Assembly: GCA_902805615.1 (NCBI GenBank)
Contig: CADCTQ010000208.1
Span: 3,574 to 67,573 of the forward strand
Origin: an uncultured Cytophagales bacterium
GTDB taxonomy: Bacteria > Bacteroidota > Bacteroidia > Cytophagales > 172606-1
Reading direction: 5' to 3'
Length of the DNA: 64,000 nucleotides
A model generated the notes under the pieces. The model had not been told where the DNA came from, ran no database searches, and saw only the letters and a list, made by a program, of their open reading frames with translations. Position numbers and translations under genes: made by a program. This document shows, in pieces, positions 23,405-56,590 of the stretch; positions within the stretch are counted from its first letter, which is position 1, and each line of letters starts with the position of its first letter.

Positions 23405-23570
23405 CAGAAAGTCAATTGATTGATGCGCTGATTGCGGCCGGCATCAAGGTGCAGTTGCTCAATAATGACCAGATAAAGATTACGGTTCCCGACGGTCCTT
23501 ACGACAAAGAGTTGCTGGAAAAGCTGCGGCGGCAGAAATCCGGGGTGGTCGAATACCTGAAAAAGATCGG
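23401..23570 (+). other. TubC-N-like NRPS docking domain
   Basis: MTESQLIDALIAAGIKVQLLNNDQIKITVPDGPYDKELLEKLRRQKSGVVEYLKK follows the pattern of TubC-type N-terminal docking domains (L..L...G..l......l....P.G....EL...L...K..l...L) and precedes the first C domain. Confidence 0.6.
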
Positions 23571-29500: not shown

Positions 29501-32289
29501 GGCTCAGCGCGGCGATCCACCCCACCGACGACCAGGCGTTTACGCTGAACCGGTTGCTGCACCTGAGAAAGCACAATCCGAAGGCCGCCGACAAACTGTA
29601 CCAGTTGCCCAATGGCATGGTCGTCTGTCATAACAACAAGAACGAAACGGACCTGGTGTATTTCGAAATTTTTGAAGACCTCACCTATCTCAAATACGGC
29701 ATCGAGATCAACGCCGGGGACGTGGTCGTTGATGTCGGGGCCAACATCGGTCTTTTTTCATTGTTCGTAGGCAACCATTTCCCCGGCACCAAAATCTACA
29801 GTTTTGAACCGGTGGCACCCGTGTATGAGGTGCTTAAAGTAAATTTATCGCTGTACGACATCCAGGCGACTCCTTTCAATGCCGGCATGGGCGATAAGCG
29901 CGAAAAAGTAACCTTTCAGTACTATCCCAACAACACCGTTTTATCGGGGCGTTTCGGCAGCGCGGACGAAAAGGTGAACGTCAAGAAGTACGTTCAAAAC
30001 CGCGCCGCCTTCGACCGGCTCAGTATTTCCGATGACCAAATCGACGCCCTGATTGAAGAACGGGTGCTGTCGGAAGAAGTGGAATGTGAGCTGACGGCCT
30101 TGTCCGACTTTATCCGTGAGCAATCCCTGACCTGCATCGACCTGCTTAAGATCGACGCCGAGAAAAGCGAGCTGAACATCATCCGGGGCATCCGCGAAGA
30201 GGATTGGCGCAAGATAAAGCAGGTCCTCATCGAGGTGCACGACATCGGCGACAGCATCAGTGAAATAGAATTCATCCTGAGGGCGCAAGGCTTCCAGGTT
30301 CAGCGGGACCAGGACGACCTGCTGCAAGGCACCGACATCTACAACCTGTATGCCTCCCGCAAGCCGCTTAAAGACAAACACGCCGTACTAACACCCGCCA
30401 AAGCATTCAATGCAAACGGCAACTGGACCCTCGGCGATGCCCTTATCAATGAGCTGAAGGCTTTCTGCAAGGACTACCTGCCGGAATACATGATTCCGTC
30501 CCAATTCGTTCTGGTGGATCACATTCCGCTGACGGCCAACGGCAAGCTCGACCTGAAGGCCATTGGCGCAATGGAAACGCCGCAACCGCCCACCGTGGAC
30601 GAAGGGTACGCGACCTGGACCCATACCCAGAAGGTCCTGGCGGCGATCTGGACCGGGATTGTTGGCAAGCAGCACGTCAAATTATCGGACGACTTTTTCA
30701 AAATCGGCGGGCATTCCCTGAACTCGGTTCAGTTGATTGCCAGGATTCAACACCACTTCAACAAGGTGCTTTCGGTAGCGGATGTGTTTAAGCACTCCAC
30801 CCTGGAGCAGCTTTCCCGAATCGTTGAGGCAAAACCGGCGTCGGCTTCCAATCCGATAACCCCCATTGAGGAGCAGGAGTTTTATGAGATGTCTCACACC
30901 CAGAAAAGGATCTGGCTGTCGAGCCAACTGGAAGAAAACCGCCTCATCTACAATATACTCTCGGCGCACGAAATCAAGGGGCTCAACGTGGACGCTTTCA
31001 TGCGGGCCCTGTCGTGCATCATCCTCCGGCACGAGATCCTGCGGACCACTTTTAAGGAGTTGAACGGGGCACCCCGGCAGTTCGTCAACCGTGCCCCGCA
31101 GCCGGCCAGTTACGTGTGCACGATCAAACTACCCGCTGAACAGCGGAGAGAGCTGATCAAAGCTGAAGCGGCCCGGTTGTTTGACCTGGAAAACGGACCG
31201 CTGTTACACGTTACCATTGCCGATGCGGGCAACGACAGCCACCTGGTCGTGCTGACGATGCACCACATCATCAGTGACGGATGGTCCTTGGACGTTTTCT
31301 TTAAGGAGTTCATTGCCTTGTATGACCTGATCGTGGATGGAAAAGAAAAAGCAATGATCCCCCTGCGCATCCACTACAAGGACTACACGGCGTGGCAGAA
31401 AGCGCAACTGAACGGGGAGGTTTTTGAGCGGCTCGGGTTGTTCTGGCACCACAAACTAGGCAAACAGATCGTGGCGCTGAATTTCACGCCGGATTTTCCA
31501 AGGCCGGCCATCCAGACCTTCAACGCGAACAGGATATCAATGGTGCTCGACAGCGAGCTGACCCGGCAGATCAGGAGTTTTACGCGCACACGTGACACTA
31601 CTCTGTTCATGATGTTCACTTCGGTCATGTACATCCTGTTCCGCTACTACACCGGGGAAGATGACATCATCATCGGAACGCCGGTGGGAGGCCGGGAGAA
31701 CCTGGCCCTCGAAAATCAGATCGGTCCGTACATCAATACGTTGCCCGTACGCTTCCGGACCGACGTGCAGGCAGATTTCGAGCAGCACCTCAAAAATGTG
31801 CGCGCGGATATTTTGTCGATGTACGATCACCAGGCTTACCCGTTCGATCTGATGCTGAATGCGCCCGGGGTGACCATTGACCGGGCGCGGTCGCCCCTGT
31901 TCGACGTAGGGTTTACCTGGCAGAATACCGACGGGATTTCGGGCGAATCAGCGTACAAAGCCCACCGGTCCCTGGAGATTGAGGGGGTAGAAGTACAGGC
32001 AGAAAGGGTTAAGACCGACTTCTGGTTCCACGCCTGGGAGGAGGGGGAGTCGGTAGTTTTCAGTCTCATGTACAACGCCAATCTGTACAAAAAGGCCACG
32101 TGCGAAAACCTGCTGAGCGATTACAGAACGTTGATTACCCAGCTCATCCTCAAGCCCGGGGTTCCGGTTGAAGACCAGTTGGACGGATTGCGCCAGAAAA
32201 AACTGGATCGGCAATCGGCCGCGGCGCACAGTGCCTACAACAGCAACCTGCAGAAGCTATTGCAGTTTACCACAACCCAGAAAGACTAA
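23401..32289 (+). CDS. NRPS-3: docking-C-A-T-C-A(FkbM-type MT insert)-T-C
   Basis: 2962-aa ORF. Its ATG overlaps the NRPS-2 stop (ATGA at 23401-23404). Motifs, in order:
- C: HHIVMDGWS
- A: YTSGSTGYPKGVLVEH
- T: LGGHSLKA
- C: HHIIADGWS
- A: YTSGTTGTPKG, interrupted by a methyltransferase domain
- T: IGGHSLNS
- terminal C: HHIISDGWS
Hand-extracted codes: DAFWLGGTFK (Val-type) and DLTKIGEIGK (Asp/Asn-type). Confidence 0.97.
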   Translation: MTESQLIDALIAAGIKVQLLNNDQIKITVPDGPYDKELLEKLRRQKSGVVEYLKKIGRRRAGARVLAIEEQEYYKLSNAQQRVWLKARLSNQESIVHNSPLSYKIKGLDKNAFAYAFRQLIHRHEILRTTFITVAGQPRQKVHDSASFYCRIGEADLRCDPDQEQSLNRLMAREINARFDLGQGPLVRATLVQVEDDEHVFLLVMHHIVMDGWSLAVIVNELLALYQAYCLQREDPLPQLQLQYKDFVHWQHRAITQEDEAYWLGEITGDVPRLALPSDFPRGNPSKFNGGQVRVLVPARQVGTLRTFATARSTSLSTVVYSVFSILLARLSNQPQFLVGVANANRNHLDLEHLVGFFVNTLLIRNTIDESCSFEAYVDQVTQRMLNALQHQNYPVDLLVEKLNPERTADHQSFFNVVFSFQNFGDLRLPAGNANDTAATLRIEAFRNDFDSMEFDLVFTVMESDGGLWVSLRYDKDAFSAASVERWAGMFMKLVAQVCDSMPAGRLRLADLSVLAPDEHERLVNAFNDNRTAYPRTATVPGLFREVVAKHGDKPALQYRGKVCTYQELEDRSNQVANLLHQHQVQTEDRVLLLMDPSDEAIAILLGILKAGGAYVFINPDYPVRRINYIAEDTGARIIFSEKKYLPLIGEMQKSGNAPGTVVYVDDEADLAHLNGRDTRYAPPVVTGDCLAYITYTSGSTGYPKGVLVEHRGVVRLVRQTNYIDIRDTDTVAQTAPIAFDASTFEIWGALLNGAKLHLLDPHALLNAKLLRSFMRDNGITICWLTSSLFNRLADLDVEIFAPLRTLLVGGEALSAAHVNKVLGAHKALTLINGYGPTENTTFSSCWPVEREYAADIPIGRPVANSQCYVLDDARRVQPIGVVGELFVGGDGLARGYLNAPELTHAKFIRSPFGGGERLYSTGDQVRWTEAGILEYKGRRDQQVKIRGFRIELKEVEAVIKRIPGVREAVVVEDRDQDQEKYLQGYFTSPEHLSPNDVRKQIAGFLPAYMVPAQMLQVDAIPLLPNGKADHRALRNLRLQLKYDLAGDIQLSSTETTLRAIWENMLDRKNIRPEDDFFELGGHSLKAVMVAALVSKELGIDVDMSALFKHTTIRALGRALDAQIPQRGHEAIPGIEEQAHYPLSHAQKRLWVLEHAGTGTSAYNMGFAFLLRGADYAVLAGALQRVVARHEILRTVFKVIDGEPRQRVLPPDVPFRVPCVDLGHLADGISLARESVKRDADTLFDLENGPLLRAKLIRVDDHAHVLFLGMHHIIADGWSMDVLFKEIASSYNAILTGEPLTLDPLAVQYKDFTVWQNKQLSDDHFSAHRQYWLDTFRGDIPVLPLTTDRPRPARQTYHGDKVSIDLEPALCDQLKAMGVERSASLFMLLLASVKTFLLRYTGQEDIVVGTVTAGRSHVGLNNQIGYYLNTLPLRTRLSGRDTFLDAVGKVRKATLDAFNHEGYPFDKLVRELALDRDPGRFPLFDVLVALQNAPDASASYPMHNVQVSAFDFGATQHSKFDLSFIFSEQGPAVTCAVEYNTDLFDPNRIERLARHYLQFLRAVLASPEAAVAALAYTTGTERRQLVQQFCGGEAVAVPNSFIETFEQRVAAHPQRAAIRYQDRSISYEALNAAANKVANHFRQQYGIRPDDLVGVMVERSPELIIALLAILKCRAAFVALETAFPRKRMEYMLSDTGIGLLVTGSDNLFNLDFFQGNLFCIDLELPQLASSAENPAADQTENPLAYVLYTSGTTGTPKGVQIGAASLMNYLQWANKRYLGDLDKAVFAVFSPVTFDLTLTSIFAPLAGGHTLRIFPHHLPVNEVLSEVFGHGSDVAVVKLTPSHLDLLNLLDLPETDVKNVIVGGEALLDRHVQTLRKLNPSVKIFNEYGPTETTIGCTVAEVLGQIHIGRPIDNTNIYILDADLQLAAVGVPGEICIGGAAVGEGYLNRAELTQQKFIAYAGEDGRTDRLYRSGDMGYWTPGGDIRLMGRKDAQVKVRGFRIETAEVERVLVNHPAVALAHVYVTKDATREPRLSAAIHPTDDQAFTLNRLLHLRKHNPKAADKLYQLPNGMVVCHNNKNETDLVYFEIFEDLTYLKYGIEINAGDVVVDVGANIGLFSLFVGNHFPGTKIYSFEPVAPVYEVLKVNLSLYDIQATPFNAGMGDKREKVTFQYYPNNTVLSGRFGSADEKVNVKKYVQNRAAFDRLSISDDQIDALIEERVLSEEVECELTALSDFIREQSLTCIDLLKIDAEKSELNIIRGIREEDWRKIKQVLIEVHDIGDSISEIEFILRAQGFQVQRDQDDLLQGTDIYNLYASRKPLKDKHAVLTPAKAFNANGNWTLGDALINELKAFCKDYLPEYMIPSQFVLVDHIPLTANGKLDLKAIGAMETPQPPTVDEGYATWTHTQKVLAAIWTGIVGKQHVKLSDDFFKIGGHSLNSVQLIARIQHHFNKVLSVADVFKHSTLEQLSRIVEAKPASASNPITPIEEQEFYEMSHTQKRIWLSSQLEENRLIYNILSAHEIKGLNVDAFMRALSCIILRHEILRTTFKELNGAPRQFVNRAPQPASYVCTIKLPAEQRRELIKAEAARLFDLENGPLLHVTIADAGNDSHLVVLTMHHIISDGWSLDVFFKEFIALYDLIVDGKEKAMIPLRIHYKDYTAWQKAQLNGEVFERLGLFWHHKLGKQIVALNFTPDFPRPAIQTFNANRISMVLDSELTRQIRSFTRTRDTTLFMMFTSVMYILFRYYTGEDDIIIGTPVGGRENLALENQIGPYINTLPVRFRTDVQADFEQHLKNVRADILSMYDHQAYPFDLMLNAPGVTIDRARSPLFDVGFTWQNTDGISGESAYKAHRSLEIEGVEVQAERVKTDFWFHAWEEGESVVFSLMYNANLYKKATCENLLSDYRTLITQLILKPGVPVEDQLDGLRQKKLDRQSAAAHSAYNSNLQKLLQFTTTQKD
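29500..30440 (+). other. FkbM-family (Methyltransf_21-like) methyltransferase domain inserted between A8 and A9 of the NRPS-3 second A domain
   Basis: About 300 aa lie between A8 (GRKDAQVKVRGFRIETAEVE, ~29365-29425) and A9/A10 (LPEYMIP at 30478-30498; NGKLD). The insert contains VVDVGANIGLFS (29722-29757), KIYSFEPV and IDLLKIDAEKSELNIIRG, the FkbM-type signature. Confidence 0.85.
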
Positions 32290-32923: not shown

Positions 32924-34549
32924 ATGGATATGGAACAGCAACTCTTCTTAAAACCCAATGTAGTCATCGAACCTTTGTTTGATAAATGGTACGCCTGGCC
33001 TCACCTGATTTCGCCCGCCACTGCCGCACTCAACATCCTTGACCGGCATTTGAAAATCATGAACTCATACGTTCAGGCGCCCCAGATCCACGCCGCGGCG
33101 GTTAAGAATCCGAAGATGTTGGGAGGGCCGTTCATGGACCTGGGCGGCAAGCGCGTGGAGGAAGTAAAGGAACTGAAAGCCAACACCCTGGCGCGGCAGC
33201 AGGACCTTATTGAACTGGCCCATGCCATCAAGCAACTCAATAAAATGCTGAAGGAGTCGGCAAAGGGCTATTCGTTGGAAGGTTTGTACGAAAAAGTCCC
33301 TGATCCCCTGAAAGGGTACGTTGAACTGGTGTATGACCTGAACCACAATCCCTCGTTCAGATTCTACGAAAGCCTGTTGTACAACAGCAAGTATTATAAA
33401 CCATCGTCGCAGAGCGTTGCCCTGTGGCTGACCGAAAACGACGAACGTCCCTTCGTGTTAAGTACGCCCCGGCTGCCCGACGACAAGGTACTGCACCTGG
33501 ACATGCCGTTCGCCCACCCCGGCATTGATGAATTGTCGAAGATGAGGCGGCTGCCCAACACCTTGTCGCACATCCGTAAAGTGTTGCCGCTTTCCGGAAA
33601 GGATGAAAAACTGCTGGAGACTTTTTTTACGACCGATCCCTACATTCCTTACAAAAAATACGAGGGCGACAGCATCAGGATGCGCTACTTCGGGCACGCC
33701 TGTATTCTTATCGAGACGAAAGATGTCTCCGTGCTGGTGGACCCGTTGATCAGCTATTACGGGTACATGAGCAGTATCAATCATTTTTCCGACTACGACC
33801 TTCCCGATACCATTGACTACGTGCTCATCACGCATAACCACCAGGACCACATCCTCTTCGAGACGCTGCTTCCGCTAAGGCACCGGATCAAGCACCTGGT
33901 GGTGCCGAGAACAACCAGTGGCGCGTTGCAGGACCCCAACCTCAAATACATGTTCAACGCCATTGGCTTCCGCAACGTCATTGAGATCGGCGACATGGAG
34001 CAACTCACTTTCAGTGATTGCGTGATCACGGGTATTCCTTTCATCGGTGAGCACAGTGACCTGAACATCCAGGCTAAAATCTGTCACCACATCAGGATCG
34101 GCCAGTTCTCGGTGCTGTTCGTGGCTGATTCCTGCAACATCGAACCGCGGTTGTACCAGCACATTCACGCCCAGACGGGAGACGTTGACGTCTTATTCCT
34201 CGGAATGGAGTGTGAGGGGGCGCCGCTTTCCTGGTTATACGGTCCATTGCTGCCCGAGGAAATGGAACGCGACAAGGATTTTTCAAGAACACTGTCAGGC
34301 TCCAATTTCAAGCGGGGAAAGGCGCTGGTAGACGTCTTCAACCCCCGTGAGGTGTACGTCTACGCCATGGGACTGGAGCCCTGGCTGGAGTTCATCAGCA
34401 GCAAACGGTACACCGACCAGGACCACCCAATCAAGGAGTCAGGAAACCTGGTGACCTATTGCAGAAGCAAAAATATCGTTTCTGAACGCCTGTTCGGGGA
34501 GAAAGAGCTGATGCGTGAAAAATACCTTGAACCCGCGCTGGTGAACTAG
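32924..34549 (+). CDS. CmlA-like non-heme diiron beta-hydroxylase (metallo-beta-lactamase fold) for carrier-bound amino acids
   Basis: 541 aa, close to the CmlA length class. It has an N-terminal non-MBL domain followed by an MBL-fold core with FGHACILIE, VLITHNHQDH (HxHxDH), IGEHSD and FVADSC. Confidence 0.75.
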   Translation: MDMEQQLFLKPNVVIEPLFDKWYAWPHLISPATAALNILDRHLKIMNSYVQAPQIHAAAVKNPKMLGGPFMDLGGKRVEEVKELKANTLARQQDLIELAHAIKQLNKMLKESAKGYSLEGLYEKVPDPLKGYVELVYDLNHNPSFRFYESLLYNSKYYKPSSQSVALWLTENDERPFVLSTPRLPDDKVLHLDMPFAHPGIDELSKMRRLPNTLSHIRKVLPLSGKDEKLLETFFTTDPYIPYKKYEGDSIRMRYFGHACILIETKDVSVLVDPLISYYGYMSSINHFSDYDLPDTIDYVLITHNHQDHILFETLLPLRHRIKHLVVPRTTSGALQDPNLKYMFNAIGFRNVIEIGDMEQLTFSDCVITGIPFIGEHSDLNIQAKICHHIRIGQFSVLFVADSCNIEPRLYQHIHAQTGDVDVLFLGMECEGAPLSWLYGPLLPEEMERDKDFSRTLSGSNFKRGKALVDVFNPREVYVYAMGLEPWLEFISSKRYTDQDHPIKESGNLVTYCRSKNIVSERLFGEKELMREKYLEPALVN

Positions 34550-34597: not shown

Positions 34598-36319
34598 ATG
34601 ACAATTTGCGGAATAAAGTTGACTCACGATGGGGCAATTGCGCTTATCGATAACGGGAAGTTGATTTTTTCCATTGAAATGGAAAAACTTGACAACAACA
34701 AGCGCCACGCAGCTTTTAACCTGACGCTTGAAAAGATCAACGCCCTGATGGGCGAGTACGGGTACAGCCTGGACGAGCTGGACCGCCTGGTGATCGACGG
34801 CTGGGGCAATGAGCTGAACCCCGCCGGCGACGGAAGCAAAAACTATTCACTGGACGTGAGTTTGCGGGGAACCGACAAACTGACCATCGGCCTGGCCTCG
34901 TACGGCCACTTGGTGGCCGATGAAGACCTGCTCAAAGGCTTGGCCTTTCATTACAACGTGGATGGATTTGAGCTGAGATACAACAGCTACCCGCACGCCG
35001 CCGGGCACATCTTAGGCGCTTATTGTACAAGCCCCTTTGCCAGTCGGAACGAAGATTCCTTCGTGTTGGTCTGGGATGGCGGCATGCCCCCGCAGCTTTT
35101 TTACTACCGGTGTCAAGAAAATAAAGTAGAAAATCTCGGCCCGTTATTCCTGCTGATGGGATTCATCTACATTAATTTTCCCCATGCGTTCGAACCCTTC
35201 AGCAAGTTGCCCAAGGACCTCTCGATTGCCGGCAAAGCCATGGCCTACATCGCACTCGGCAACGTGCAGGGTGAACTGTTACAAGTGTACAGGCAAACGT
35301 TCGCAGCGGTGCTCAACGAGGCGAAAGACCTGCGGGTGACGCCCGAGCTGTGCGTCATTGTAACGCAGGAATTCATTAAAAACGCCACGACCCCCGCAAT
35401 CAGGAGCCAGTATACGTCGGATGACATGCTCACCACCTTTCACGCCTTCATGGAAGAATTGCTGGTTGAAAGCATCGGACGGAAAGTAAAGGACTATCCC
35501 GGCTATAAAAGGAATCTGTGTTTTGCCGGAGGATGCGCCTTGAACATAAAATGGAACAGCGCCCTGCGCGAAAGCAAGCTCTTTGAAGGCGTGTGGGTGC
35601 CGCCTTTTCCCAACGATGCGGGCAGCGCCATCGGTACCGCGTGCTGCGAGATGGTCAATCAGGGTATGCGCAGCCTGGCGTGGAACGTATACAGCGGGCC
35701 GGCCCTGAGGGTATCCGGGATGGACCAAGGCTGGCAAGCGGCCAAGTGCTCCGTTGAAGAACTGGCACGTATGCTGCACGAAGTAGGAGAGCCGGTCGTC
35801 GTCCTGAACGGACGGGCAGAACTAGGCCCGCGTGCGCTTGGGAACCGAAGCATTGTAGCGCCGGCGACTGACTTTGGCATGAAGCAACTCCTGAACACAA
35901 TCAAGGTCCGGGAGCATTACCGTCCCGTGGCTCCGATCTGCCTGGAGCAGGATGCACCCGCCATTTTTGACCCGGGTTCCCCCGACCCTTTCATGTTATA
36001 CGACCATTTGGTGAGGCCGGATTGGCTGGCAAAGATCCCGGCCGTGTGTCACCTGGACCAGACGGCCCGCCTGCAAACGGTAAACGCTGCCGATAACCCG
36101 GTCATTTATAACTTGCTGACCTGTTACAAGGCGCTCAGCGGAATTCCCCTGTTGTGTAACACCAGCGCCAACTTCAAAGGGAAAGGTTTTTTTCCCGATG
36201 CCGAAAGCGCGATGACGTGGGGAATGGTCAACTACGTTTGGAGTGAGGGCATTCTGTTCACGAAAGCCGGAAAAGACCAATGGACGGCAGTAAGTCGGCT
36301 GCAATCAGAAAAAATATAA
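34598..36319 (+). CDS. NodU/CmcH-family carbamoyltransferase
   Basis: 573 aa. Motifs: MTICGIKLTHDGAIALIDNGKLIFSIEMEKLDNNKRH (N-terminal motif), FAGGCALNIKWN, GRAELGPRALGNRSI, KVREHYRPVAP, HLDQTARLQTV and LCNTSANFKG. Confidence 0.9.
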   Translation: MTICGIKLTHDGAIALIDNGKLIFSIEMEKLDNNKRHAAFNLTLEKINALMGEYGYSLDELDRLVIDGWGNELNPAGDGSKNYSLDVSLRGTDKLTIGLASYGHLVADEDLLKGLAFHYNVDGFELRYNSYPHAAGHILGAYCTSPFASRNEDSFVLVWDGGMPPQLFYYRCQENKVENLGPLFLLMGFIYINFPHAFEPFSKLPKDLSIAGKAMAYIALGNVQGELLQVYRQTFAAVLNEAKDLRVTPELCVIVTQEFIKNATTPAIRSQYTSDDMLTTFHAFMEELLVESIGRKVKDYPGYKRNLCFAGGCALNIKWNSALRESKLFEGVWVPPFPNDAGSAIGTACCEMVNQGMRSLAWNVYSGPALRVSGMDQGWQAAKCSVEELARMLHEVGEPVVVLNGRAELGPRALGNRSIVAPATDFGMKQLLNTIKVREHYRPVAPICLEQDAPAIFDPGSPDPFMLYDHLVRPDWLAKIPAVCHLDQTARLQTVNAADNPVIYNLLTCYKALSGIPLLCNTSANFKGKGFFPDAESAMTWGMVNYVWSEGILFTKAGKDQWTAVSRLQSEKI

Positions 36320-36434: not shown

Positions 36435-37472
36435 ATGGAAACCCACAACGCATTGGCTCTGCCTGAAAATACGCTCCGCCCGTTTCTGTGGGTGGAGCAG
36501 CAATCTTGTGCGCTCCGGACGCGTGCCGGGCTACCCGGAATACCGGCGGGCGACATACCCGGATTGCCTCTGGTGATCGCCGCGGGAAACAAAGACGTTG
36601 ATTTAAGCGCCTGGATGAGCGAGAACAGGGCCGAACTCCGACAACTGCTGAGGAAGTGCGGCGGGATTCTGTTCAGGGGGTTTGGTATCCGGTCCTCGGG
36701 TGACTTCAAGGCTTTGGTGACCCAGTGGAGTGGCAGACAGATGGAATACTTCGACCAAACTTCCCCCAGAAGCCTGATTGACGACGCCGTGTATACCTCC
36801 ACCGACTACCCGTCCGATCAACGCATCAAAATGCACAACGAGCTTTCGTATGCCCACCGGTGGCCGCTGGAGATATTCTTTTTTTGCGTGCAGCCCGCCG
36901 ACGCAGGGGGCGAAACGCCCATCGCCGACTGCCGGAAAGTGCTTTCGAAATTAAGCAAAAGGACACTGGAAAAATTCTCGGCGAAAGGAGTGATGTACGT
37001 CAGGAACATGATTGATGGCCTGGGGCTTTCCTGGCAGCGGGTTTACCAAACGGATGATCCCGAAAAAGTAAATGCACACTGTACCAGGAATGGGATCCGC
37101 TTCGCGTGGAAAGGCGAAGATCACCTTAAAACGGTTTGGACCAGGCCGGCGGTCGGCAAGCACCCGGTTACCGGTGAAGCCACCTGGTTTAATCACGCCT
37201 ATTTCTATAACATTCTGTCAACCAACCCTTTGTTGCTCGACTTGGTCGACGATAAGGACGAGTTGCCATTTAACACCTATTACGGCGACGGGTCGGAGAT
37301 TGAACCGGAGGTGATCGAAGAGATCGGCGGCGCGTTCGACAACACCCGCGTCACGTTTACATGGGAGACGGGAGACCTGCTCCTGCTGGACAATATGCTG
37401 ACTGCGCACGGCAGAAGTTCCTACACGGGTCAGCGTAAAGTTCTCGTTTCCATGTGCGAGCCCGTGTTCTGA
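36435..37472 (+). CDS. TauD/TfdA-family Fe(II)/2-oxoglutarate dioxygenase, SyrP-like (putative aspartyl beta-hydroxylase)
   Basis: 345 aa. Motifs: GGILFRGFGI, YTSTDYPSDQRIKMHNELSY (HxE facial-triad part), FFFCVQPADAGGETPIADCRKV, WFNHAYF and LTAHGR. Confidence 0.85.
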   Translation: METHNALALPENTLRPFLWVEQQSCALRTRAGLPGIPAGDIPGLPLVIAAGNKDVDLSAWMSENRAELRQLLRKCGGILFRGFGIRSSGDFKALVTQWSGRQMEYFDQTSPRSLIDDAVYTSTDYPSDQRIKMHNELSYAHRWPLEIFFFCVQPADAGGETPIADCRKVLSKLSKRTLEKFSAKGVMYVRNMIDGLGLSWQRVYQTDDPEKVNAHCTRNGIRFAWKGEDHLKTVWTRPAVGKHPVTGEATWFNHAYFYNILSTNPLLLDLVDDKDELPFNTYYGDGSEIEPEVIEEIGGAFDNTRVTFTWETGDLLLLDNMLTAHGRSSYTGQRKVLVSMCEPVF

Positions 37473-37537
37473 CGCCGGTTTTGCAAATGCAGTGTACCCC
37501 CGCCTAAGTATTATTCATTGTGTGAAAAGTTTGCTGT

Positions 37538-38830
37538 ATGCCTGATTTCGTTGTAAAAAGCCTGCGGTCACCTTCCCAACGCTGGATCGAAAACCATTCT
37601 AACCACGCGTTAGGAACCCTCATCCGACTTTCGCTCCGGGAAGTCCCCGAGGCTGACCCGTTTACCGCATCCTTCCGGCAGTTATTGTCGCGGCATCACA
37701 TCCTGAGCGCCAGTGGCACTGATCCGTACCAGGAGGCGCCGTCGCTGGAGGTACTGGACAGGGCCGGTCTGGCCGCTGCCAATGGCCGGGAAGCAGACCC
37801 GTGGCTTGGGTTCAAACGGCGCATTGTGAACGAACGCGCCTTCAGGGTGTGGCTGGTAAAATCTGCCGGCGGGGCCAAAGTGTTTTTGTACCTGCCCGCG
37901 GTCATCGGCGACGCCGCGTCGGCGGTGCACCTGTGCCGGGAGTTGATCGGGTTTTACCGGGGCAGTGAAACTTTGCCAACTTCCGCGCCGCCACTGCAAT
38001 TTGCCCAGTACGCCGCCTGGCACAATGAGCTTTTGGACGAACCCAACGCGGAAGCGGAAATGTTTTGGCAGCAGTTCTCCGGCCGGATGCCATTGCCGAG
38101 AAAACTTACCGTTGAAAAAAATGGCGGACCAGAAAGGGATTCGTTACTGGACAGCATCCGGTTTGCGATTCCCGGGGGGGACAACGTGCGCACCCCTGCG
38201 GGCGGGGAGCGCCTGCCCGGGGAGTCGTTTATGTTGACCTGCTGGAGCGTCGTGCTTGCCCAGTACCTGGTGGAAGCAGATTACGTGATGGGCAGAATCG
38301 GTTCCGGGCGTTCGTATGATTTGTTTGAGAATATTACCGGTCCTTTTTCGCGGCCGTACCCCGTGAATATAGCCTTTCCTGCGTCAACGACGTTCGCAAC
38401 GGCGGTACGGGAAGTAACGGCCCAGTTGGCCCTCGCCCAAGCGTGGCAGGACCACCTGAACCTGGAAAAGTTTAACCCGCCCCCAACCTCGTCCGCCGGT
38501 TCCTTCTTCCCGTTCGGTTTTGAGCTGATTCCCGCGGATGAAACGTTACGCCAGTTTACGGACGAATGCATAGAAGACGTGTATACCCTGTGCGAGCCGT
38601 TCAAGCTGAAATTGCTGGCCTTGGCCGGGAAGGCTGACGTACAGTTTCAACTGTATTTTGATCCGGCGCTTTACGACCGCGAATTCGTGGTGGTGTTGCG
38701 GGACCGGTTCACCCGTGTTTTCAGTAAAGCGGTTTCCGATCCGGAGGTGACCCTGACCGACCTGCGGGCGGCTACCGCCGAGGATCTGCAATACATTGCG
38801 GCGCACGCCGGATGGAACGACGACCGCCCC
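37538..38830 (+). other. full-length condensation-like domain lacking the catalytic His motif (interface-like or pseudo-C domain)
   Basis: Fold-length region with C-like features (FAQYAAWHNELL, MFWQQF, PLPRKL) but no HH: the motif position reads LPAVIGDAAS. It lies directly downstream of the SyrP-like gene and directly upstream of an Asp-type A domain. Confidence 0.65.
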
Positions 38831-41800
38831 GGATTAAAGGGCAACTTTAAGGAATTGTTTGAGGAGCGGGCGCTGACGACACCGGACCAGGCCGCCGTTT
38901 CTTACGAGGGGCAACACCTCACGTTCGGGCAACTGAACGCCCGGGCCAACCAACTGGGCGCGTACCTGCGGCGGCATTTCGGCCTGCGGAGCGAAGACAT
39001 CGTTGCCGTGAAATGTGAGCGCTCCATCGAGATGATTGTTGCATTGCTCGCCGTTATAAAGGCCGGCGGCGCCTTTCTGCCCGTGGATGGGCAATCACCG
39101 GAAGCCAGGTTGAACAGCATCCTTGCCGACAGCAACGCCAGGCTACTGATCACGTCCGGGGATACCGTTGAGCGCAACGTCACCCGGGTGGACCTGAAAA
39201 GGCAGGAGGAAGAAATTCAAAAAGAGGACGTAGGCAATCTGCCGGCCGCCATCCGGCCGTCTTCCGGGGTCTACGTCATCTATACGTCGGGTTCAACGGG
39301 GCAGCCCAAGGGCGTGATGGTCTCTCACGGGGCATTGGTCAATTACCTGACCTGGTTTATTGATGCCTACCAGATCGGTGTCCGGGACAGAACGCTGGTT
39401 TTGTCATCGGTGGCCTTCGATCTTACGTACACAAGTTTGTTCTCGTCGCTGCTCGCCGGGGCTTCGCTACACCTATTGAAGGAACGGGAACACTTTGATG
39501 CAGAAGACATGACCACCGCCCTGATTGCGCAGGGGATTACCTACCTCAAGTTAACCCCTTCCCATTTTGGCCTGCTGGTGAATGATCCGGCGTTCGAGGA
39601 GCAGCGGGAAAAATACCGGCTGCGGCTGGTTATCCTCGGGGGAGAGGAGATCAACGTCGCTGACGTACAAAAGTACATGTCCGGCAACCCCGATTGCCTG
39701 TTCGTGAATCACTACGGGCCTACCGAAACAACCATTGGAGCTGCCGTCAGGGAGATCAGCAGCCATACCCTCGGGACGTTCGCGCAAAAGCCGGTCATTG
39801 GAAAACCAATCCGGAACAACAAGGTGATCATACTCGACGATGCCGGCCGCGTTGCGCCCGTTGGCGTACCGGGTGAAATTTGCATTGCCGGAGCGGGCCT
39901 GGCCAACGGGTACCTCAACAGTCCGGTACTCACCGGCGAGAAATTCGCGTGGTTTGATTCCGGTGCCGGATTTTTCAATCAGCGCCTCTACAGAAGCGGC
40001 GACGCCGGTTTCCTGCTGGCCGATGGGAACATCGCTTTCCTGGGCAGAAAAGACAACCAGGTGAAAATAAACGGCTTCAGGGTGGAGACCGGTGAAGTGG
40101 AACATGCCCTCGAAGGGTACCCGGGAGTCGATAAGGCAGTGGTGATCCCCGTGAAGAACACCGCGGGAAAACATGAGTTGTACGGCTACCTGTGTGCCGG
40201 CAATGCGGTGACGGCGGCCTCGCTCAACGCATACCTCCGGGAACGCATTCCGCAGTACATGATTCCCAAAGACTACAAAAGAGTGCCTGCCATTCCCCTC
40301 ACCCCCAACGGGAAGGTGAACCGTAAAAAACTACTGGAAATGCCGGCCGTCCCGTTGGTGCGGGAAAACGCCGTTGAACTGCCGGCGAACGAGGTGGAGC
40401 AGAAACTGGTGGAGGTCTGGAAAAGCGTGTTGAACTGCGACGGCGTGGGCGTGAATGATAATTTCTTTCACGTCGGCGGCGATTCGATCAAAGCCATCCA
40501 GGTTGCTTCCCGGATGCACGCTTCGGGATACAAACTGAACATCCGGAATTTGCTGAAGTTTCCCGTGCTCAAGCAAATGGCCACCAAGGTTGAGGTGGTC
40601 CGCCAGGCACCCGACCAGTCGAGCGTACAGGGCGTAATCCCGTTAACGCCAATCCAGGCCAGGTTTTTACGGAACATAAAGACCGACCCGAGTCATTATA
40701 ACCAGTCGTTTCTGCTCCGGTTTGACCAAACGCTGGACCGGAGGACCGTCGAAATACTCTTCGACAAACTGCTGGCGCACCACGACATGCTGCGGGTTAC
40801 CTTCCGGAGAGAAGGTTCGCGGTACGTGCAACTGGCCAATGGCACCGGTCAGCGGCTCGCCGTTGAGGAAGTTGACCTGGCAGAACACCCGGATGCGGCG
40901 TCCCGTTTTCAAGCCCACGCAACCGACCTCCAGCGGCGGCTTGCTATCACCGAAGGTCCGCTGGTCAAAGTCGCGCTCTTTCATTTTGCCGGCCACGCGA
41001 AGCTGTTGGTGGTGATCCACCATTTAATTGTTGATTTCGTGTCGTGGCGCATCCTGCTGGAAGACCTCAATACCCTGGTGCAGCAGCATCAACAAGGCGC
41101 ACCGTTGCAGTTACCGCCCAAAACCAGCTCCTACAAAGCCTGGTCGGAGAGCCTGCTGGCCTACGCCGGGTCGGATGACTTCGCCAGGGAGAAGGGCTAC
41201 TGGGAAAATCAGGCGCAGCTCGACGTACCGGCCATCCAGCCTGACTATGCGCAGGCAACGAACCTGACCAGGGATGAGGCATCCGTGTCTTTCGCGCTTA
41301 CCGAGGCGCAAACCCACGTGCTCCAGGCCAGGATAAACCCGGCGTTCGGAACCAACATGAATGACGTATTAATTACCGCGGTCGTCGTGGGTTTCAGGGA
41401 AGTATTCGGGCACAACCGGCTGTCCATCGACTTGGAAGGACACGGCCGGGAAGATATTCAGGAGGCCGTTGATACCAACAGAACGGTCGGCTGGTTTACC
41501 AGCATTTACCCGGTCGTGCTCGATGCGTACGGCAAGGGGAGTCTGGTGGAGGAGCTGGTAAACGTTAAAGAGACTTTGCATAAAGTCCCGCGCGGGGGAA
41601 TCGCCTACGGCGTGATGCGTTACTTGGGCAGCGAAGGCGTTACACTCCCCGGGAGAGAGCCCGCTTCGCAAATAATTTTTAATTATCTTGGTCAATTTAA
41701 CAGTGAAATAAGTCAACTTTCTTATATATTAGCTAACGAAACGAAGGGCGTCGAACGCAGTGGTCGCCAGGACCTGCTGTACGAATTCAGGATTGGCGCC

Positions 41801-42010
41801 ATCTCGGTAAACGGAGTAATGCATGTATCCATCCATTACAACAAGAACCGCTACCGGGAGGCTACGGTAAATAGGATTTCGGCATCGATGAAGGAAGCGA
41901 TGACGAAACTGGTTGCAGTGGCCGATGAAATCAAAGGACTCACTGTAACTCCGAGTGACTTTACCTACAAGGATCTATCCGTAGATGACTTGGAGAACAT
42001 ATTCAGTTAG
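37538..42010 (+). CDS. NRPS-4: C*(degenerate)-A-T-E, single Asp-type module
   Basis: 1490-aa ORF.
- N-terminal ~430 aa: C-domain-sized, but YLPAVIGDAAS stands where HHxxxDG is expected (37889-37921).
- A: YTSGSTGQPKGVMVSH, hand-extracted code DLTKIGHIGK (Asp-type)
- T: VGGDSIKAIQV
- E: HHLIVDFVSWRIL
- C-terminus: TPSDFTYKDLSVDDLENIFS. Confidence 0.95.
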   Translation: MPDFVVKSLRSPSQRWIENHSNHALGTLIRLSLREVPEADPFTASFRQLLSRHHILSASGTDPYQEAPSLEVLDRAGLAAANGREADPWLGFKRRIVNERAFRVWLVKSAGGAKVFLYLPAVIGDAASAVHLCRELIGFYRGSETLPTSAPPLQFAQYAAWHNELLDEPNAEAEMFWQQFSGRMPLPRKLTVEKNGGPERDSLLDSIRFAIPGGDNVRTPAGGERLPGESFMLTCWSVVLAQYLVEADYVMGRIGSGRSYDLFENITGPFSRPYPVNIAFPASTTFATAVREVTAQLALAQAWQDHLNLEKFNPPPTSSAGSFFPFGFELIPADETLRQFTDECIEDVYTLCEPFKLKLLALAGKADVQFQLYFDPALYDREFVVVLRDRFTRVFSKAVSDPEVTLTDLRAATAEDLQYIAAHAGWNDDRPGLKGNFKELFEERALTTPDQAAVSYEGQHLTFGQLNARANQLGAYLRRHFGLRSEDIVAVKCERSIEMIVALLAVIKAGGAFLPVDGQSPEARLNSILADSNARLLITSGDTVERNVTRVDLKRQEEEIQKEDVGNLPAAIRPSSGVYVIYTSGSTGQPKGVMVSHGALVNYLTWFIDAYQIGVRDRTLVLSSVAFDLTYTSLFSSLLAGASLHLLKEREHFDAEDMTTALIAQGITYLKLTPSHFGLLVNDPAFEEQREKYRLRLVILGGEEINVADVQKYMSGNPDCLFVNHYGPTETTIGAAVREISSHTLGTFAQKPVIGKPIRNNKVIILDDAGRVAPVGVPGEICIAGAGLANGYLNSPVLTGEKFAWFDSGAGFFNQRLYRSGDAGFLLADGNIAFLGRKDNQVKINGFRVETGEVEHALEGYPGVDKAVVIPVKNTAGKHELYGYLCAGNAVTAASLNAYLRERIPQYMIPKDYKRVPAIPLTPNGKVNRKKLLEMPAVPLVRENAVELPANEVEQKLVEVWKSVLNCDGVGVNDNFFHVGGDSIKAIQVASRMHASGYKLNIRNLLKFPVLKQMATKVEVVRQAPDQSSVQGVIPLTPIQARFLRNIKTDPSHYNQSFLLRFDQTLDRRTVEILFDKLLAHHDMLRVTFRREGSRYVQLANGTGQRLAVEEVDLAEHPDAASRFQAHATDLQRRLAITEGPLVKVALFHFAGHAKLLVVIHHLIVDFVSWRILLEDLNTLVQQHQQGAPLQLPPKTSSYKAWSESLLAYAGSDDFAREKGYWENQAQLDVPAIQPDYAQATNLTRDEASVSFALTEAQTHVLQARINPAFGTNMNDVLITAVVVGFREVFGHNRLSIDLEGHGREDIQEAVDTNRTVGWFTSIYPVVLDAYGKGSLVEELVNVKETLHKVPRGGIAYGVMRYLGSEGVTLPGREPASQIIFNYLGQFNSEISQLSYILANETKGVERSGRQDLLYEFRIGAISVNGVMHVSIHYNKNRYREATVNRISASMKEAMTKLVAVADEIKGLTVTPSDFTYKDLSVDDLENIFS
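40625..42007 (+). other. epimerization (E) domain of NRPS-4
   Basis: Contains IPLTPIQARFL and HHLIVDFVSWRIL (His pair at 41028-41033; Phe replaces the usual Gly after Asp). It has a COM-donor-like tail, TPSDFTYKDLSVDDLENIFS. Confidence 0.85.
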
Positions 42011-44712: not shown

Positions 44713-47700
44713 ATGTTGTCGAAGGAAAACATAAAAGACATTTATGGATTATCTCCCTTGCAGGAAGGCATACTTTTCCACAACCTGCTTGATGCCGAAG
44801 AGGACACCTACTTCCGGCAGTCCGCCTACAGAATTGAGGGATCGCTGGACGTGGAGGCGGCCAGGAAAAGCTTCAACGGTTTGTCGGCCCGTCACGACGT
44901 CTTAAGGACCGTGTTCAACTACTCGAAGGGCATGAAGCCGCTGCAAATTGTACTGAAGCAACGCGACGTGGATTTTTATTACGAAGATTTGCGCACGCTT
45001 AGCCCGGCCGGCAAGGAGCAGTACATTGAGGAATTCAAGAAATCGGATGCTAAAAAATCTTTCGACATCACCAAGGATGTTTTAATCCGGATATCGATCT
45101 TCCGGCGCGAAGAGAACAGCTACGAATTGATTTGGAGTGACCACCATATTTCAATGGATGGCTGGTGCAGAAAAATTCTTTACACGGAATTCGCGCAACT
45201 CTACATTGGTCACCTGAAAGGCATCCCGGCTGCCTTCCAGCCGGTTACCCCCTTCAGCGCGTACATCAAGTGGATTGAGAGCCGGAATAAGAGCGCTTCA
45301 CTGGCGTACTGGTCCGGCTATCTGAAGGGGTACGACGTGCCCGTGGAGATCCCCCGGCTGAGGATTGCCGAGGGTACAACCTACAAAAGCGAGGTCGTGA
45401 GCCGCCCGCTGACTGAGGAGAAGACAAGCGCATTGAAAGCGCTGGCGAAGACATTCGGGACCACCTTAAACGTGCTGTTCCAGGTAATCTGGGGATCAAT
45501 CATCGCCAAATACCACAACAGGAATGACGTTGTGTTCGGTGCCGTCGTATCCGGCAGGCCCCCGGAAATACCCGGGATCGAGTCGATGGTAGGGCTGTTT
45601 ATCAATACAATACCGGTCAGGGTACAGTTTGCCCACGACCAAGCCTTCGACGACGTATTGCTTCAGTGCCACCAGCATTTCACCGAGGCCGAGTCGCACC
45701 ACTACTGCCAGCTCGCCGACATACAATCCGCCTCCGAGCTGAAACACAAGCTCTTTGACCACATCCTTATTTTTGAAAACGTTCCGGTCAGCGAGTCCGA
45801 TGAAGCGGCCACCGATGCCGGCCTTGGGTTTCAACTCTCCCATCATGATGCACGGGAACATACCAATTATGACCTCGACGTGACGATTGGCATTGGTCAG
45901 CAGTTGACGCTGCAGATTACTTACAATGAACACGTGCACGACCGCTGCTTTGTCGAGAACCTGTTTGAGCACTTCGGGAACGTGGCCGACCAGGTGCTGG
46001 CCAATCCCCGCCTGGGCATGAGCCGCCTCAAACTGATCTCCCCGGCTGAAGAAGCCCAGGTATGCTTTGGGTTCAACAAGGCCGAAAAGCGGTATGACGG
46101 CGACCTGACAATCATCGGGCGGTTTGAATACCAGGCGGAAAAGAATCCGGGGGCACCGGCGGTCATTCACAACGGCCGGCAATTGACCTACGGGGCGCTT
46201 AACCAGCAGGCAAACTGCCTGGCGAATTTCCTAATCGGGTCCGGATTCAGGAAGGGAAGTTTTGCGGGGGTTTGCCTGGACAGAGGCTTGGACCTCGTCG
46301 TTGCCATGCTGGCTATTGCAAAGGCAGGGGGCGTATACGTGCCGTTCTCTACCGGTCATTCGGTTTCCAGAACGCACCTGATGATTGAGCAGAGTGAGGT
46401 TTCCGTTCTTTTTGCAACGGCCCGTTTCGTGAACGAGAATGCGGAATTTCTGCAAAAGGGTAGCTTCCCGGAGACCATTGTGCACTTTGCGGACCACGGC
46501 GGCTGGAAGGCTCCGGACGAGGTGCTGGCGGAACGCACCGTATCGGCGGCTGCCATTTACGCATCGGGCAACGGCAATAATCCGCCTGCGGGTTTGTTGC
46601 AGGCGGATAACCTGTACATGATCTATACCTCCGGTTCAACCGGAACGCCCAAAGGCGCCCTTATCCGTCAAGACGGCGCCCTGAACCATATATTGGCTGA
46701 GTTCGAATTCCTGCGATTGAACGGGGCTTTAAGGATCCTGCAAAGCGCCAATATTTCGTCCGACATTTCGGTCTGGCAGATACTGGCGCCCCTCACTTGT
46801 GGAGGCGCCACGGTGGTCATCGATCACGACGACCTGCTCGAGTACGACAAACTTTGTGAGGTCATCACCGGGGGAAAGATAGACCTGATGGTACTGGTCC
46901 CTTCCTTTCTGGTGGGATTCCTGGAGTACCTGGGCAGCGCGGCCGGGCCTGCAAACCGTTTTCCGGACCTGAAGTACGTACTGGTCGGAGGGGAAGACGT
47001 TACGGTTGGTTTGGTCAACGCGTGGCTTCGCCTTTTCCCCCACGTTCCGGTAGTGAACGCCTACGGGCCTGCCGAAGCTTCCGACGACGTGCTGCAAAAC
47101 ATTGCGACGCAGCCATTGCCCCCGGGAACCCGGAAATTTCCCATCGGCAAGCCGTTGTCCAACATAAACGTTTTTATTGTCGACAATGCCATGAACCTGC
47201 AACCGGTCGGGGCCTGCGGTGAGATATGCGTTTCCGGCGTAGCCGTCGGCGCTGGTTACTGGCGGGACGAGGAACGGACCAGGCAGGCTTTTGTGCCTAA
47301 CCCTTTTGCGGGAACGCTGGGCGATACGATCTATAAAACGGGTGACATCGGAAGGTGGTTGCCGGATGGCAACGTCGAATTCTTCGGCCGGGCTGATCGC
47401 CAGGTTAAGATCAGGGGCCACCGGATTGAACTTGAGGAAGTGGATTTTGCCCTGAAATCGGACGCGGCGGTGATGGATGCGGTCACCGACGTGCGAAAGA
47501 ACGAGCAGGGCAACCAAGTCATCGCTGCGTACCTCATACCGCGGGTGAAGCCCGGCGAAGCAGCCCGGGAGCAGGCGTTTATCGACGCCGTCCGCAATAA
47601 CGTCAAGGGAAGACTGCCGGAATACATGCGGCCGGCCTGGTACGTGGTGATGGATCACTTTCCCGTCAACCGGAATCACAAGGTGGACCGGAAGGCATTA

Positions 47701-55737: not shown

Positions 55738-55843
55738 CGTTTCTTTCCTGCTTCGTTGCTGGCATCGCCGTCAATGCGCGTTTCCGCGCAGCCGGGAAGC
55801 TTGTCTCATGCCCTTTGGACAAACTGTTCTAAAACCACTCTTT

Positions 55844-56590
55844 ATGATAAAGGAAGAAGGATTGGTCAACTATGACCTGGCAGAAGATTATTGGCTAAAA
55901 AAAGTAAAAAACGTCGAGTGGCGCCGACTCCCCGTTTTTCATTCCGGAAAAGCGTACGGTTCCGGCGCGGGCTTGGAAGAGTTCAGGTTTCCTTTTCCGC
56001 CGAAACTTTCCGCCGAGCTTCGTTCCAAGTCAAAGGATACGCCCTCCAACGTGTACTTGTTGCTTTTAACGGCATGCAACATCTTACTGCATAAGTACTG
56101 GCAACATCCCGACGTACTGGTCGCCACTACGGGGTTTGCTGACCAGGAAGAAGATGCCGCCGAAGACGTCCTCCTGTTTTTTAGAAATTCTATCACCGAT
56201 GCCACCACGCCGCGCGAACTGCTCAACAACGCGCTGGATGATCTGAACCTGGCCTATGAACACCAAAGATTCGACTTCGAATCCCTGGTGAAGACGTTCA
56301 CGGCCAATGAAGCGGGTGATCTACACGCGCTCTACCAGGTGGGACTGGTTTTAATGGGCTTCAACCGGGTAAACAAAAACGGGCTGCTTGACCGGCTCAA
56401 GCTCTTGTTCAGGATTGACCAGGAAGACAGTGGTTTTGGGCTGAGCGTACAATATGATCCCGTCTTCTTCGACCGGTTCATTGTGCAGCAGATGGCCCGG
56501 AACTTCATCCACCTGATCGGCGCGGCCATGAAGGAGATTGACCAGCCGGTTGCCCTGCTGAGCGCAGCGTCACCCGAAGAAAAACTGCAC
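55844..56590 (+). other. vestigial C-terminal subdomain of a condensation domain at the NRPS-6 N-terminus
   Basis: LAEDYWLKKVKNVEWRRLP...LLLLTACNILLHKYWQHPDVLV...AYEHQRFDFESLV has the same layout as the NRPS-2 N-terminus. It has no HHxxxDG half and runs into an Asp-type A domain (ELFEQHAAANPDGIAL). Confidence 0.6.

Follow-up and report, generated by a model that had tools for sequence, protein, structure and literature searches.

Interface domains and the locus under study

Among the condensation superfamily domains of nonribosomal peptide synthetases (NRPSs), the interface (I) domain was reportedly named by Reitz, Hardy, Suk, Bouvet, and Butler (PNAS 2019) together with the aspartyl β-hydroxylases of siderophore NRPSs. 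This interface domain work is cited in PMC12971057, PMC7100376, and PMC10212144, and antiSMASH 8 carries profiles for the automatic detection of both interface domains and their hydroxylases (PMC12230676). Here we analyze a stretch of 64,000 nucleotides (nt) from an uncultured soil bacterium of the Cytophagales (contig CADCTQ010000208.1 of assembly GCA_902805615.1, positions 3,574 to 67,573; hereafter the window, whose own numbering is used for all coordinates), in which a gene for a dioxygenase of the TauD/TfdA family lies directly upstream of an NRPS gene, NRPS-4, whose product opens with a condensation-like (C-like) domain devoid of the active-site histidines and is predicted to load Asp. 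We conclude that the two probably constitute a trans-acting aspartyl β-hydroxylation unit, with the C-like domain as an I domain that serves as the adaptor and the TauD enzyme operating on the Asp module of NRPS-4.

Related enzymes are not confined to siderophores. An eLife genome-mining paper notes turnercyclamycin as an example of the peptides other than siderophores that the hydroxylase profiles pick up as well (PMC12971057). According to PMC13638107, which cites Chen et al. (Angew Chem 2022), a stand-alone enzyme, GlmF, hydroxylates a carrier-bound His residue at its β position in glidomide biosynthesis, and the I domain is required for this. In the lipopeptide pathway of syringomycin, the SyrP/SyrE pair (Singh et al. 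2008, as cited in PMC7100376) provides a case of a stand-alone TauD-family enzyme that hydroxylates Asp bound to a thiolation (T) domain. In Bacteroidota, the chitinopeptins of Chitinophaga are cyclic lipodepsipeptides of 14 to 15 residues, with three β-hydroxy-Asp residues and N-methylated residues, and a CmlA-like gene is part of their clusters (PMC9248904).

A full-length condensation fold that has lost both active-site histidines

The C-like domain occupies the first 435 amino acids (aa) of NRPS-4 (37538..38842, + strand). When these residues are searched alone, the Pfam Condensation model is matched with E=2.8e-19 but covers only aa 122 to 414. In an alignment with the LCL, DCL, starter, and epimerization (E) domains of the window, the segment LPAVIGDAAS (aa 119 to 128) lies exactly on the HHxxxDGxS signature, so that LPAVIGD (nt 37892-37912) stands in place of HHxxxDG: the two His are replaced by Leu and Pro and the Gly by Ala, and the Asp is retained. 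Thus, the motif by which canonical LCL domains are recognized, with its catalytic second His, is missing, and the domain is predicted to be noncatalytic. An AlphaFold2 model built on 22 sequences of the family (mean predicted local distance difference test score [pLDDT], 76.8; predicted template modeling [TM] score, 0.84) shows a complete, two-lobed condensation (C) fold. Because this model superposes along its full length on the C domains of LgrA, SrfA-C, Txo, and TomB (TM scores of 0.73 to 0.75 over about 440 to 470 alignment columns), we take the full-length fold to be upheld.

The region is also preserved in a second locus, L001, from a Logan assembly that is the nearest source besides the window's own, in which the dioxygenase is 93% identical and the gene order is the same as that in the window. 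In the comparison of the two, the ratio of nonsynonymous to synonymous substitution rates (dN/dS) is 0.34 for the C-like domain, 0.20 for the adenylation (A) domain, 0.22 for the E domain, and 0.14 for the TauD gene, indicating purifying selection on the C-like domain. The conserved gene order and this selection together exclude a chance pattern. A sequence-only reading of the window had described a SyrP-like dioxygenase immediately upstream of an NRPS that starts with a His-less C-like region of about 430 aa, comes after an NRPS whose last domain is a canonical C domain, and continues with an Asp-type A domain, a T domain, and an E domain; each element of that description is borne out by the alignments, models, and profile searches reported here.

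The dioxygenase encoded upstream of NRPS-4

The product of the gene at 36435-37472 (+ strand; 345 aa) matches the Pfam TauD model (PF02668) with E=9.2e-45; no second TauD homologue occurs in the window. Its gene belongs to the NRPS cluster, in which it adjoins the Asp module, with a gap of 65 nt between it and the start of NRPS-4. The metal ligands H134, E136, and H325, along with R327 and R334, are invariant across 30 relatives (alignment A2), and H134-x-E136…H325 and the Arg align with the H-x-E…H…R pattern of 1y0z, a solved clavaminate-synthase-like protein. The same structure is the top PDB fold match of its AlphaFold2 model (pLDDT, 86.4), with TM scores of 0.77/0.83. Going by these residues, it is a stand-alone Fe(II)/2-oxoglutarate enzyme of the TauD/TfdA (SyrP-like) type whose metal and cosubstrate positions are intact.

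Among the species representatives of the genome collection, no dioxygenase more than about 50% identical was found. The near relatives include both forms fused to a C domain (P0004, with 54% identity, L086, and L087) and genes that stand alone, as in Nostoc loci of a siderophore-like kind (L004); hence, the clade mixes the fused and stand-alone arrangements. It does not fix the substrate either, because the relatives adjoin modules with varied A-domain codes. Among the carrier-dependent aspartyl β-hydroxylases of the TauD/TfdA type, the clades named TbH_Asp, IbH_Asp, SbH_Asp, and CyanoBH_Asp are used to predict whether the product is threo or erythro.

Placement of the C-like domain in the I-type family

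We searched 1.84 billion representative proteins exhaustively with the C-like domain by using HMMER. Since the ranking by whole protein was dominated by giant NRPSs with multiple C domains, the hits were re-scored per domain. The only close representative, given as 84% identical in the hit list, was the window's own protein (100% identical, a self-match), and the next identities were about 25%. Besides the self-match, the best-scoring domains were 42 HH-less domains, i.e., domains without HHxxxD, at 55 to 121 bits, and canonical HH-containing C domains reached a maximum of 63.5 bits in the same re-score. All but one of the 42 are N terminal in their proteins (41/42), and the A domain that follows is of the Asp type (DLTKxGHxGK) in 21 of the 42 and of the Asn type in 5, the remainder being of the Gln type, the Glu type, or other types. 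An alignment of the window domain with 21 Asp- or Asn-associated members (A1) revealed a motif of the family's own, xLPALCADxxTL, in place of HHxxxDG, with an invariant Asp and a nearly invariant Pro. A word-indexed protein search with the C-like domain alone or with A1 returned no homologues, which looks like a limit of that method for such queries.

Three profiles were then compared: an I-type profile without the window sequence, an I-type profile made from TauD-adjacent domains of other genomes, and a canonical C profile from other genomes. In these held-out comparisons, the C-like domain of NRPS-4 scored 212.5 and 163.6 bits with the two I-type profiles versus 66.9 bits with the canonical one, a margin of 97 to 146 bits; the remaining C and E domains in the window, 15 in number, all favored the canonical profile, by 100 to 262 bits. 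It is the comparison with the held-out canonical profile that is informative here, as the raw I-profile score does not discriminate when taken alone (98 to 218 bits for canonical C domains of the window). NRPS-4 thus bears the only full I-type domain in the window. The match to the interface-domain concept proposed in the sequence-only reading is, therefore, sustained by the loss of the His residues, the C fold, the held-out profiles, the Asp- and Asn-type A domains that accompany the family, and the adjacency to TauD genes in several phyla.

In a neighbor-joining tree, the window domain branches basally in the main I clade, as the sister of an I-type domain from a Chitinophagaceae metagenome-assembled genome (MAG), with weak bootstraps, and four other I-like domains from Bacteroidota fall outside that clade on long branches. 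TauD-adjacent C-like domains without the LPxLxxD pattern were seen in Chitinophaga (L003, 11044-12450, which reads AEAIVMD, and L006), Rapidithrix (L071), and Hymenobacter (L080); these are long-branched, lie outside the main I clade, and may form a separate subtype.

The X domain of glycopeptide NRPSs was suggested by the top PDB sequence match of the C-like domain (E=1.7e-6). We rejected this identity, as the margin was negligible and ordinary C domains rank higher by fold, the X-domain structures 4tx2 and 4tx3 appearing at ranks 28 and 39 in the fold search with the C-like model. Moreover, the C-like domain is N terminal, and the annotated neighbors are the TauD, CmlA-like, carbamoyltransferase, and permease genes, with no P450 among them. 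No entry named as an interface domain was present in the PDB copies that we searched.

Pairing of TauD genes and I-type domains across genomes

One genome per species was scanned with the dioxygenase alignment, and the best 80 loci were taken, drawn from Chitinophaga, many Acidobacteriota, Nostocales, Chloroflexota, and some Streptomyces. Where at least 1.5 kb of downstream sequence was available, an I-type domain starts within 400 nt downstream on the same strand for 64 of 95 TauD genes. A C domain ends within 700 nt upstream in 69 of the 103 cases with room upstream (27 of the 69 being C-TauD fusions), and both partners, the upstream C and the downstream I-type domain, are present in 50 of 86. 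For instance, a locus of Chitinophaga sp. YR627 reads …A-T-C, TauD, an AEAIVMD-type C-like domain, and an Asp-type A domain; a Nostoc carneum locus has an acyl ligase-acyl carrier protein (ACP)-C protein followed by TauD and an LPGLSAD-type domain; and a metagenomic locus has a C-TauD fusion followed by an LPALAAD-type domain. In the reverse direction, five I-type relatives found through the C-like domain alone were taken up, and the four with DNA to read were informative: in two, the preceding NRPS closes with C-TauD; one is preceded by a stand-alone TauD gene with a 4-nt gap, and one by a C-ending NRPS with TauD absent within 4 kb.

The A-domain codes that follow the TauD-adjacent I-type domains (L008-L084) are of the Asn type in 14 cases, the Asp type in 10, the Gln type in 8, and the Glu type in 4, with DSASIAEVWK in 3 and SSRD in 6; the last, an unusual code that lacks Asp235, was found in siderophore-like loci of Nostoc. 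Examples of such loci are L024, L036, L040, L049, and L061. This variety suggests that the pairing serves several amino acids in Acidobacteriota and Cyanobacteria.

Domain partners of the C-like domain and a predicted order of events

NRPS-4 (37538-42010, + strand; 1490 aa) continues from the C-like domain with an A-T-E set. The A domain (38846..40342, + strand) has the Asp-type code DLTKIGHIGK; codes were read by alignment to a GrsA-PheA sequence, the ten reference positions of which gave the expected DAWTIAAICK. The T domain (40373..40603, + strand) is intact, with Ser983 in a GGDSI motif, a form that T domains followed by an E domain typically show. The E domain that follows (40613..42007, + strand) retains HHLIVDFVSW and EGHGRE, aligns with the other E domain of the window at 291 bits, and ends in a C-terminal docking tail.

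The preceding NRPS in the line, NRPS-3, ends in a canonical C domain (30841..32286, + strand) with HHIISDGWS at aa 2621 (nt 31261-31287), which scored 405.5 bits with the held-out canonical profile versus 192.4 bits with the I-type one. This domain is presumed to catalyze, in trans, peptide bond formation with the NRPS-4 Asp. On the other side, the first C domain of NRPS-5 (44713..46062, + strand) is of the DCL type: it aligns at 369 bits with the C domain of NRPS-2 that stands after the other E domain and clusters with it in the neighbor-joining tree. As it most resembles that domain, it should accept a donor of the D configuration.

On the basis of these features, a coherent order of events can be conceived. 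The A domain of NRPS-4 would load L-Asp onto its T domain; the dioxygenase would then hydroxylate C-3 of the thioester-bound Asp, positioned by the I domain and possibly also by the upstream C domain; the C domain that closes NRPS-3 would join the eight-residue lipopeptide to the aminoacyl group on NRPS-4 in trans; the E domain would invert C-2; and the DCL-type C domain of NRPS-5 would pass on the chain with D-β-hydroxy-Asp at residue 9. The order of hydroxylation and condensation in this scheme is provisional, as is the docking role of the I domain. For the configuration of the residue, we can reasonably infer D-β-hydroxy-Asp, because the E domain is intact and the next NRPS opens with a DCL-type C domain.

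The surrounding cluster and its other split junctions

All of the large genes of the window are on the + strand and together form one NRPS cluster, whose assembly line starts with an acyl ligase and an ACP, comprises at least 14 modules, and is of the lipopeptide type. NRPS-1 (385-13128, +) consists of the acyl ligase, the ACP, three C-A-T modules, and a terminal C domain, with the A-domain codes DTESIGTVCK, DTESIGTVCK, and DLFTLMLTYK. NRPS-2 (13268-23404, +) has a 250-aa C-like stub followed by A-T-C-A-T-E-C-A-T and the codes DAKHSGTICK, DSELTAEVCK (the module with the E domain), and DLFNNALTYK (Ala). NRPS-3 (23401-32289, +) has the architecture C-A-T-C-A-T-C, with an insert of about 310 aa in its second A domain, and the codes DAFWLGGTFK (Val-like) and DLTKIGEIGK (Asn type, with the insert). 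NRPS-5 (44713-55737, +) is C-A-T-C-A-T-C-A-T-C, with the codes DIWVLGADDK, Asp type, and DAFTLGITYK, and NRPS-6 (+, from about 55808 and running past the window end) starts with a 277-aa C-like stub and an A domain, its codes being Asp type and DGGVVVAVYK (with an insert), after which the line continues beyond the window. We recognized no known compound that matches the predicted code order across 385-64000.

Inserts of about 300 aa between the core motifs were seen in two A domains, one at 29500-30426 and the other in the second A domain of NRPS-6 (beyond 59800); both are likely embedded methyltransferases. The first of these, the Asn-type A domain of NRPS-3 (DLTKIGEIGK), belongs to the module that directly precedes the Asp module of NRPS-4. 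In NRPS-5, the second C domain (48001-49332; Pfam, 6.2e-62) has HRIVSEG (48397-48417) in place of HHxxxDG and is otherwise canonical; no other C domain is available for joining modules 10 and 11, and an Asp-type A domain (DLTKLGHIGK) comes directly after it.

NRPS-3 is separated from the dioxygenase gene by two tailoring genes, encoding a CmlA-like diiron β-hydroxylase (32924-34549, +) and a NodU-like carbamoyltransferase (34598-36319, +). L001 is syntenic for the carbamoyltransferase and for a cut-off CmlA-like open reading frame, and CmlA-like genes were also observed near TauD genes in several Acidobacteriota loci (L019, L033, L041, L057, and L073). We treat both enzymes as context only, and any action on the NRPS-4 module is putative. 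Between NRPS-4 and NRPS-5, beginning 18 nt after the former, is a gene for an 800-aa permease of the MacB/FtsX type (ADOP family) with a predicted role in transport (42029-44431, +), which is kept in L001. Neither a TonB-dependent receptor nor any other siderophore uptake gene was identified among the window genes.

The stubs of NRPS-2 (13268-14017) and NRPS-6 (55808-56638) are of 250 to 280 aa and comprise only the C-terminal lobe of a C domain (Pfam positions of about 190 to 455). In each case, the preceding NRPS is itself closed by a full C domain (the NRPS-1/2 and NRPS-5/6 junctions), and the stub of NRPS-6 precedes an Asp-type A domain (DLTKLGHIGK). Both score weakly with the profiles, slightly higher as canonical C lobes than as I-type ones. 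Similar stubs were seen in Nostoc, cyanobacterium PCC 7702, and Acidobacteriota loci (L049, L050, L058, and L081).

Weighing of alternative explanations

Several observations weigh against an I domain that guides the dioxygenase to the Asp of NRPS-4. The domain is only 17 to 25% identical to the 21 other members of A1, its first ~95 aa are degenerate and go unmatched by the I-type profile of its own family, and the RHEILRT motif is degenerate. The I-type references were defined operationally (HH-less, N terminal, and next to TauD) and not by the curated Reitz set or the antiSMASH profile, and the neighbor-joining support is weak, 86 of 200 bootstraps giving an I-only split and 6 of 200 giving canonical partners. 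The I domain of the myxoglucamide protein MxgB proved dispensable in vitro, and hydroxylation and the upstream condensation were mutually dependent (PMC13638107, 2026); the presence of an I domain, therefore, does not prove that it is required. Finally, the stubs occur at two C/A junctions of the same line that have no dedicated hydroxylase, which makes a general junction role for C-like remnants possible. These stubs, the similar ones in other loci, a dN/dS above that of the catalytic domains, the degenerate N-terminal part, and the dispensability of the MxgB domain would fit the main rival explanation, a His-less domain that is a structural remnant and holds the split module together through the A domain and the C domain that closes NRPS-3, with the dioxygenase finding the T domain or the upstream C domain unaided. 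We consider this explanation unlikely, although it is one to be reckoned with, given that the C-like domain is full length and has a conserved motif of its own family, that this family is tightly tied to TauD genes and to Asp- and Asn-type A domains across phyla, that the stubs do not score as I-type, and that the I domain is required in glidomide biosynthesis (as cited in PMC13638107).

A different difficulty is the number of candidate substrates, as three Asp-type and one Asn-type A domains in the window face a single TauD enzyme, and a CmlA-like hydroxylase is also encoded. The authors of the chitinopeptin study credit the CmlA-like enzyme with adding the hydroxyl groups to Asp, Phe, and Ile and mention neither TauD enzymes nor I domains (PMC9248904). 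On this reading, the dioxygenase might serve the Asn module in NRPS-3 or the Asp modules carried by NRPS-5 or NRPS-6, or might act on a free amino acid, leaving the Asp of NRPS-4 unmodified or hydroxylated by the CmlA-like protein. The occurrence of TauD relatives next to I-type domains with Asn-type, Gln-type, Glu-type, and DSASIAEVWK codes, and the third or so of related TauD genes with no I-type neighbor, speak in its favor; nevertheless, it appears very unlikely to us, since the conserved pattern is a TauD gene directly upstream of the I-bearing module, and the sole I-type domain of the window sits on the Asp module of NRPS-4, 65 nt from the TauD gene. That the C-like domain instead still catalyzes condensation through an unusual active site, with another role left for the C domain that closes NRPS-3, is extremely improbable: the modeled fold is complete and some members of the C superfamily are generally known to tolerate changes in the motif, but both His residues are lost, including the second, which is generally considered critical, the loss is common to the whole family, the line offers a canonical C domain directly upstream, and the profile test cleanly separates the domain from catalytic C domains. 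More elaborate, and in our estimation quite unlikely, is the proposal that the domain represents a strongly diverged I-domain subtype in a fully split set of three proteins (the NRPS-3 C domain, the free TauD enzyme, and I-A-T-E) that organizes more than one trans-acting tailoring enzyme. If this were so, the TauD enzyme might be followed by the carbamoyltransferase to give, for example, O-carbamoyl-β-hydroxy-D-Asp, and the NRPS-2 and NRPS-6 stubs might be minimal adaptors, e.g., for the CmlA-like hydroxylase. We accordingly retain the simpler trans-acting aspartyl β-hydroxylation unit as the probable function of the pair.

Comparison with known systems

The dioxygenase and the C-like domain of the window are a new and very divergent example of a pairing known since 2019. 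The sequence-only reading had implied that its occurrence in a lipopeptide-type line was novel; this part does not stand, as I domains outside siderophore pathways have been published and tested in the glidomide and myxoglucamide systems (PMC13638107). A specialist would, accordingly, not be surprised by a domain type that is described, detected by antiSMASH 8, and tested in two non-siderophore pathways. What may merit a further look is the extreme divergence of the domain, the full three-protein split, the neighboring carbamoyltransferase, the C-lobe stubs, and the wide occurrence of TauD and I-type pairs with non-Asp A domains. Our annotation predicts a β-hydroxy-Asp, probably in the D configuration, at residue 9 of a Cytophagales lipopeptide at least 14 residues long, and the survey extends the pairing beyond siderophore producers to Bacteroidota, Acidobacteriota, Cyanobacteria, and Chloroflexota and to modules of the Asn, Gln, Glu, and DSASIAEVWK types. 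The published biochemistry is split on the need for the I domain, which was required in the glidomide system, as cited in PMC13638107, and dispensable in the myxoglucamide one (PMC13638107). A very divergent member in which the C domain, the hydroxylase, and the I domain are three proteins could help dissect which contacts matter.

As in NRPS-4, the I domains of Reitz et al. are reportedly C-superfamily domains without HHxxxDG that open an Asp-loading NRPS protein. They also share with the present locus a preceding protein closed by a canonical C domain, a TauD-type hydroxylase that is either stand-alone or fused to the C domain, and the same Asp-type A-domain code. Unlike those systems, the locus described here is from a Cytophagales MAG, lies in a lipopeptide line of at least 14 modules, and has no siderophore transport genes visible in the window; its domain shares no more than 25% identity with the aligned family and is degenerate in its N-terminal part, and two tailoring genes intervene between the NRPS that ends in C and the hydroxylase gene.

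The X domain of glycopeptide NRPSs, which precedes the thioesterase domain, resembles the C-like domain in being a degenerate C fold, and it recruits oxygenases in trans (4tx2 and 4tx3, including the complex with the P450 OxyB). It differs in belonging to the last NRPS module (module 7) and in having P450 partners rather than 2-oxoglutarate enzymes. As the similarity is no closer than that to ordinary C domains, this is a functional analogy only.

As cited in PMC7100376, SyrP is like the window dioxygenase in being a stand-alone TauD-family enzyme of a lipopeptide line. The chitinopeptins share with the window line the long lipopeptide type, the Bacteroidota origin, and the CmlA-like hydroxylase gene, but their residue order differs from the prediction, every one of their hydroxylations is credited to the CmlA-like enzyme, and their β-hydroxy-Asp is L-threo, in contrast to the E domain present here (PMC9248904). 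With the glidomide enzyme GlmF, as described in PMC13638107, the window shares a stand-alone 2-oxoglutarate dioxygenase, a carrier-bound residue, a module initiated by an I domain, and a pathway not treated there as siderophore biosynthesis; the differences are the His substrate and the Burkholderiales host. The myxoglucamide proteins MxgA (…C-Ox) and MxgB (I-A-T…) resemble the window in that the C domain, the dioxygenase, and I-A-T are split over protein borders and β-hydroxylation takes place on the carrier, as predicted here, but in that system the dioxygenase is fused to the C domain and the substrate is Glu (PMC13638107). The coupling of hydroxylation and condensation found there offers a testable model for the NRPS-3 C domain, the TauD enzyme, and NRPS-4 (PMC13638107).

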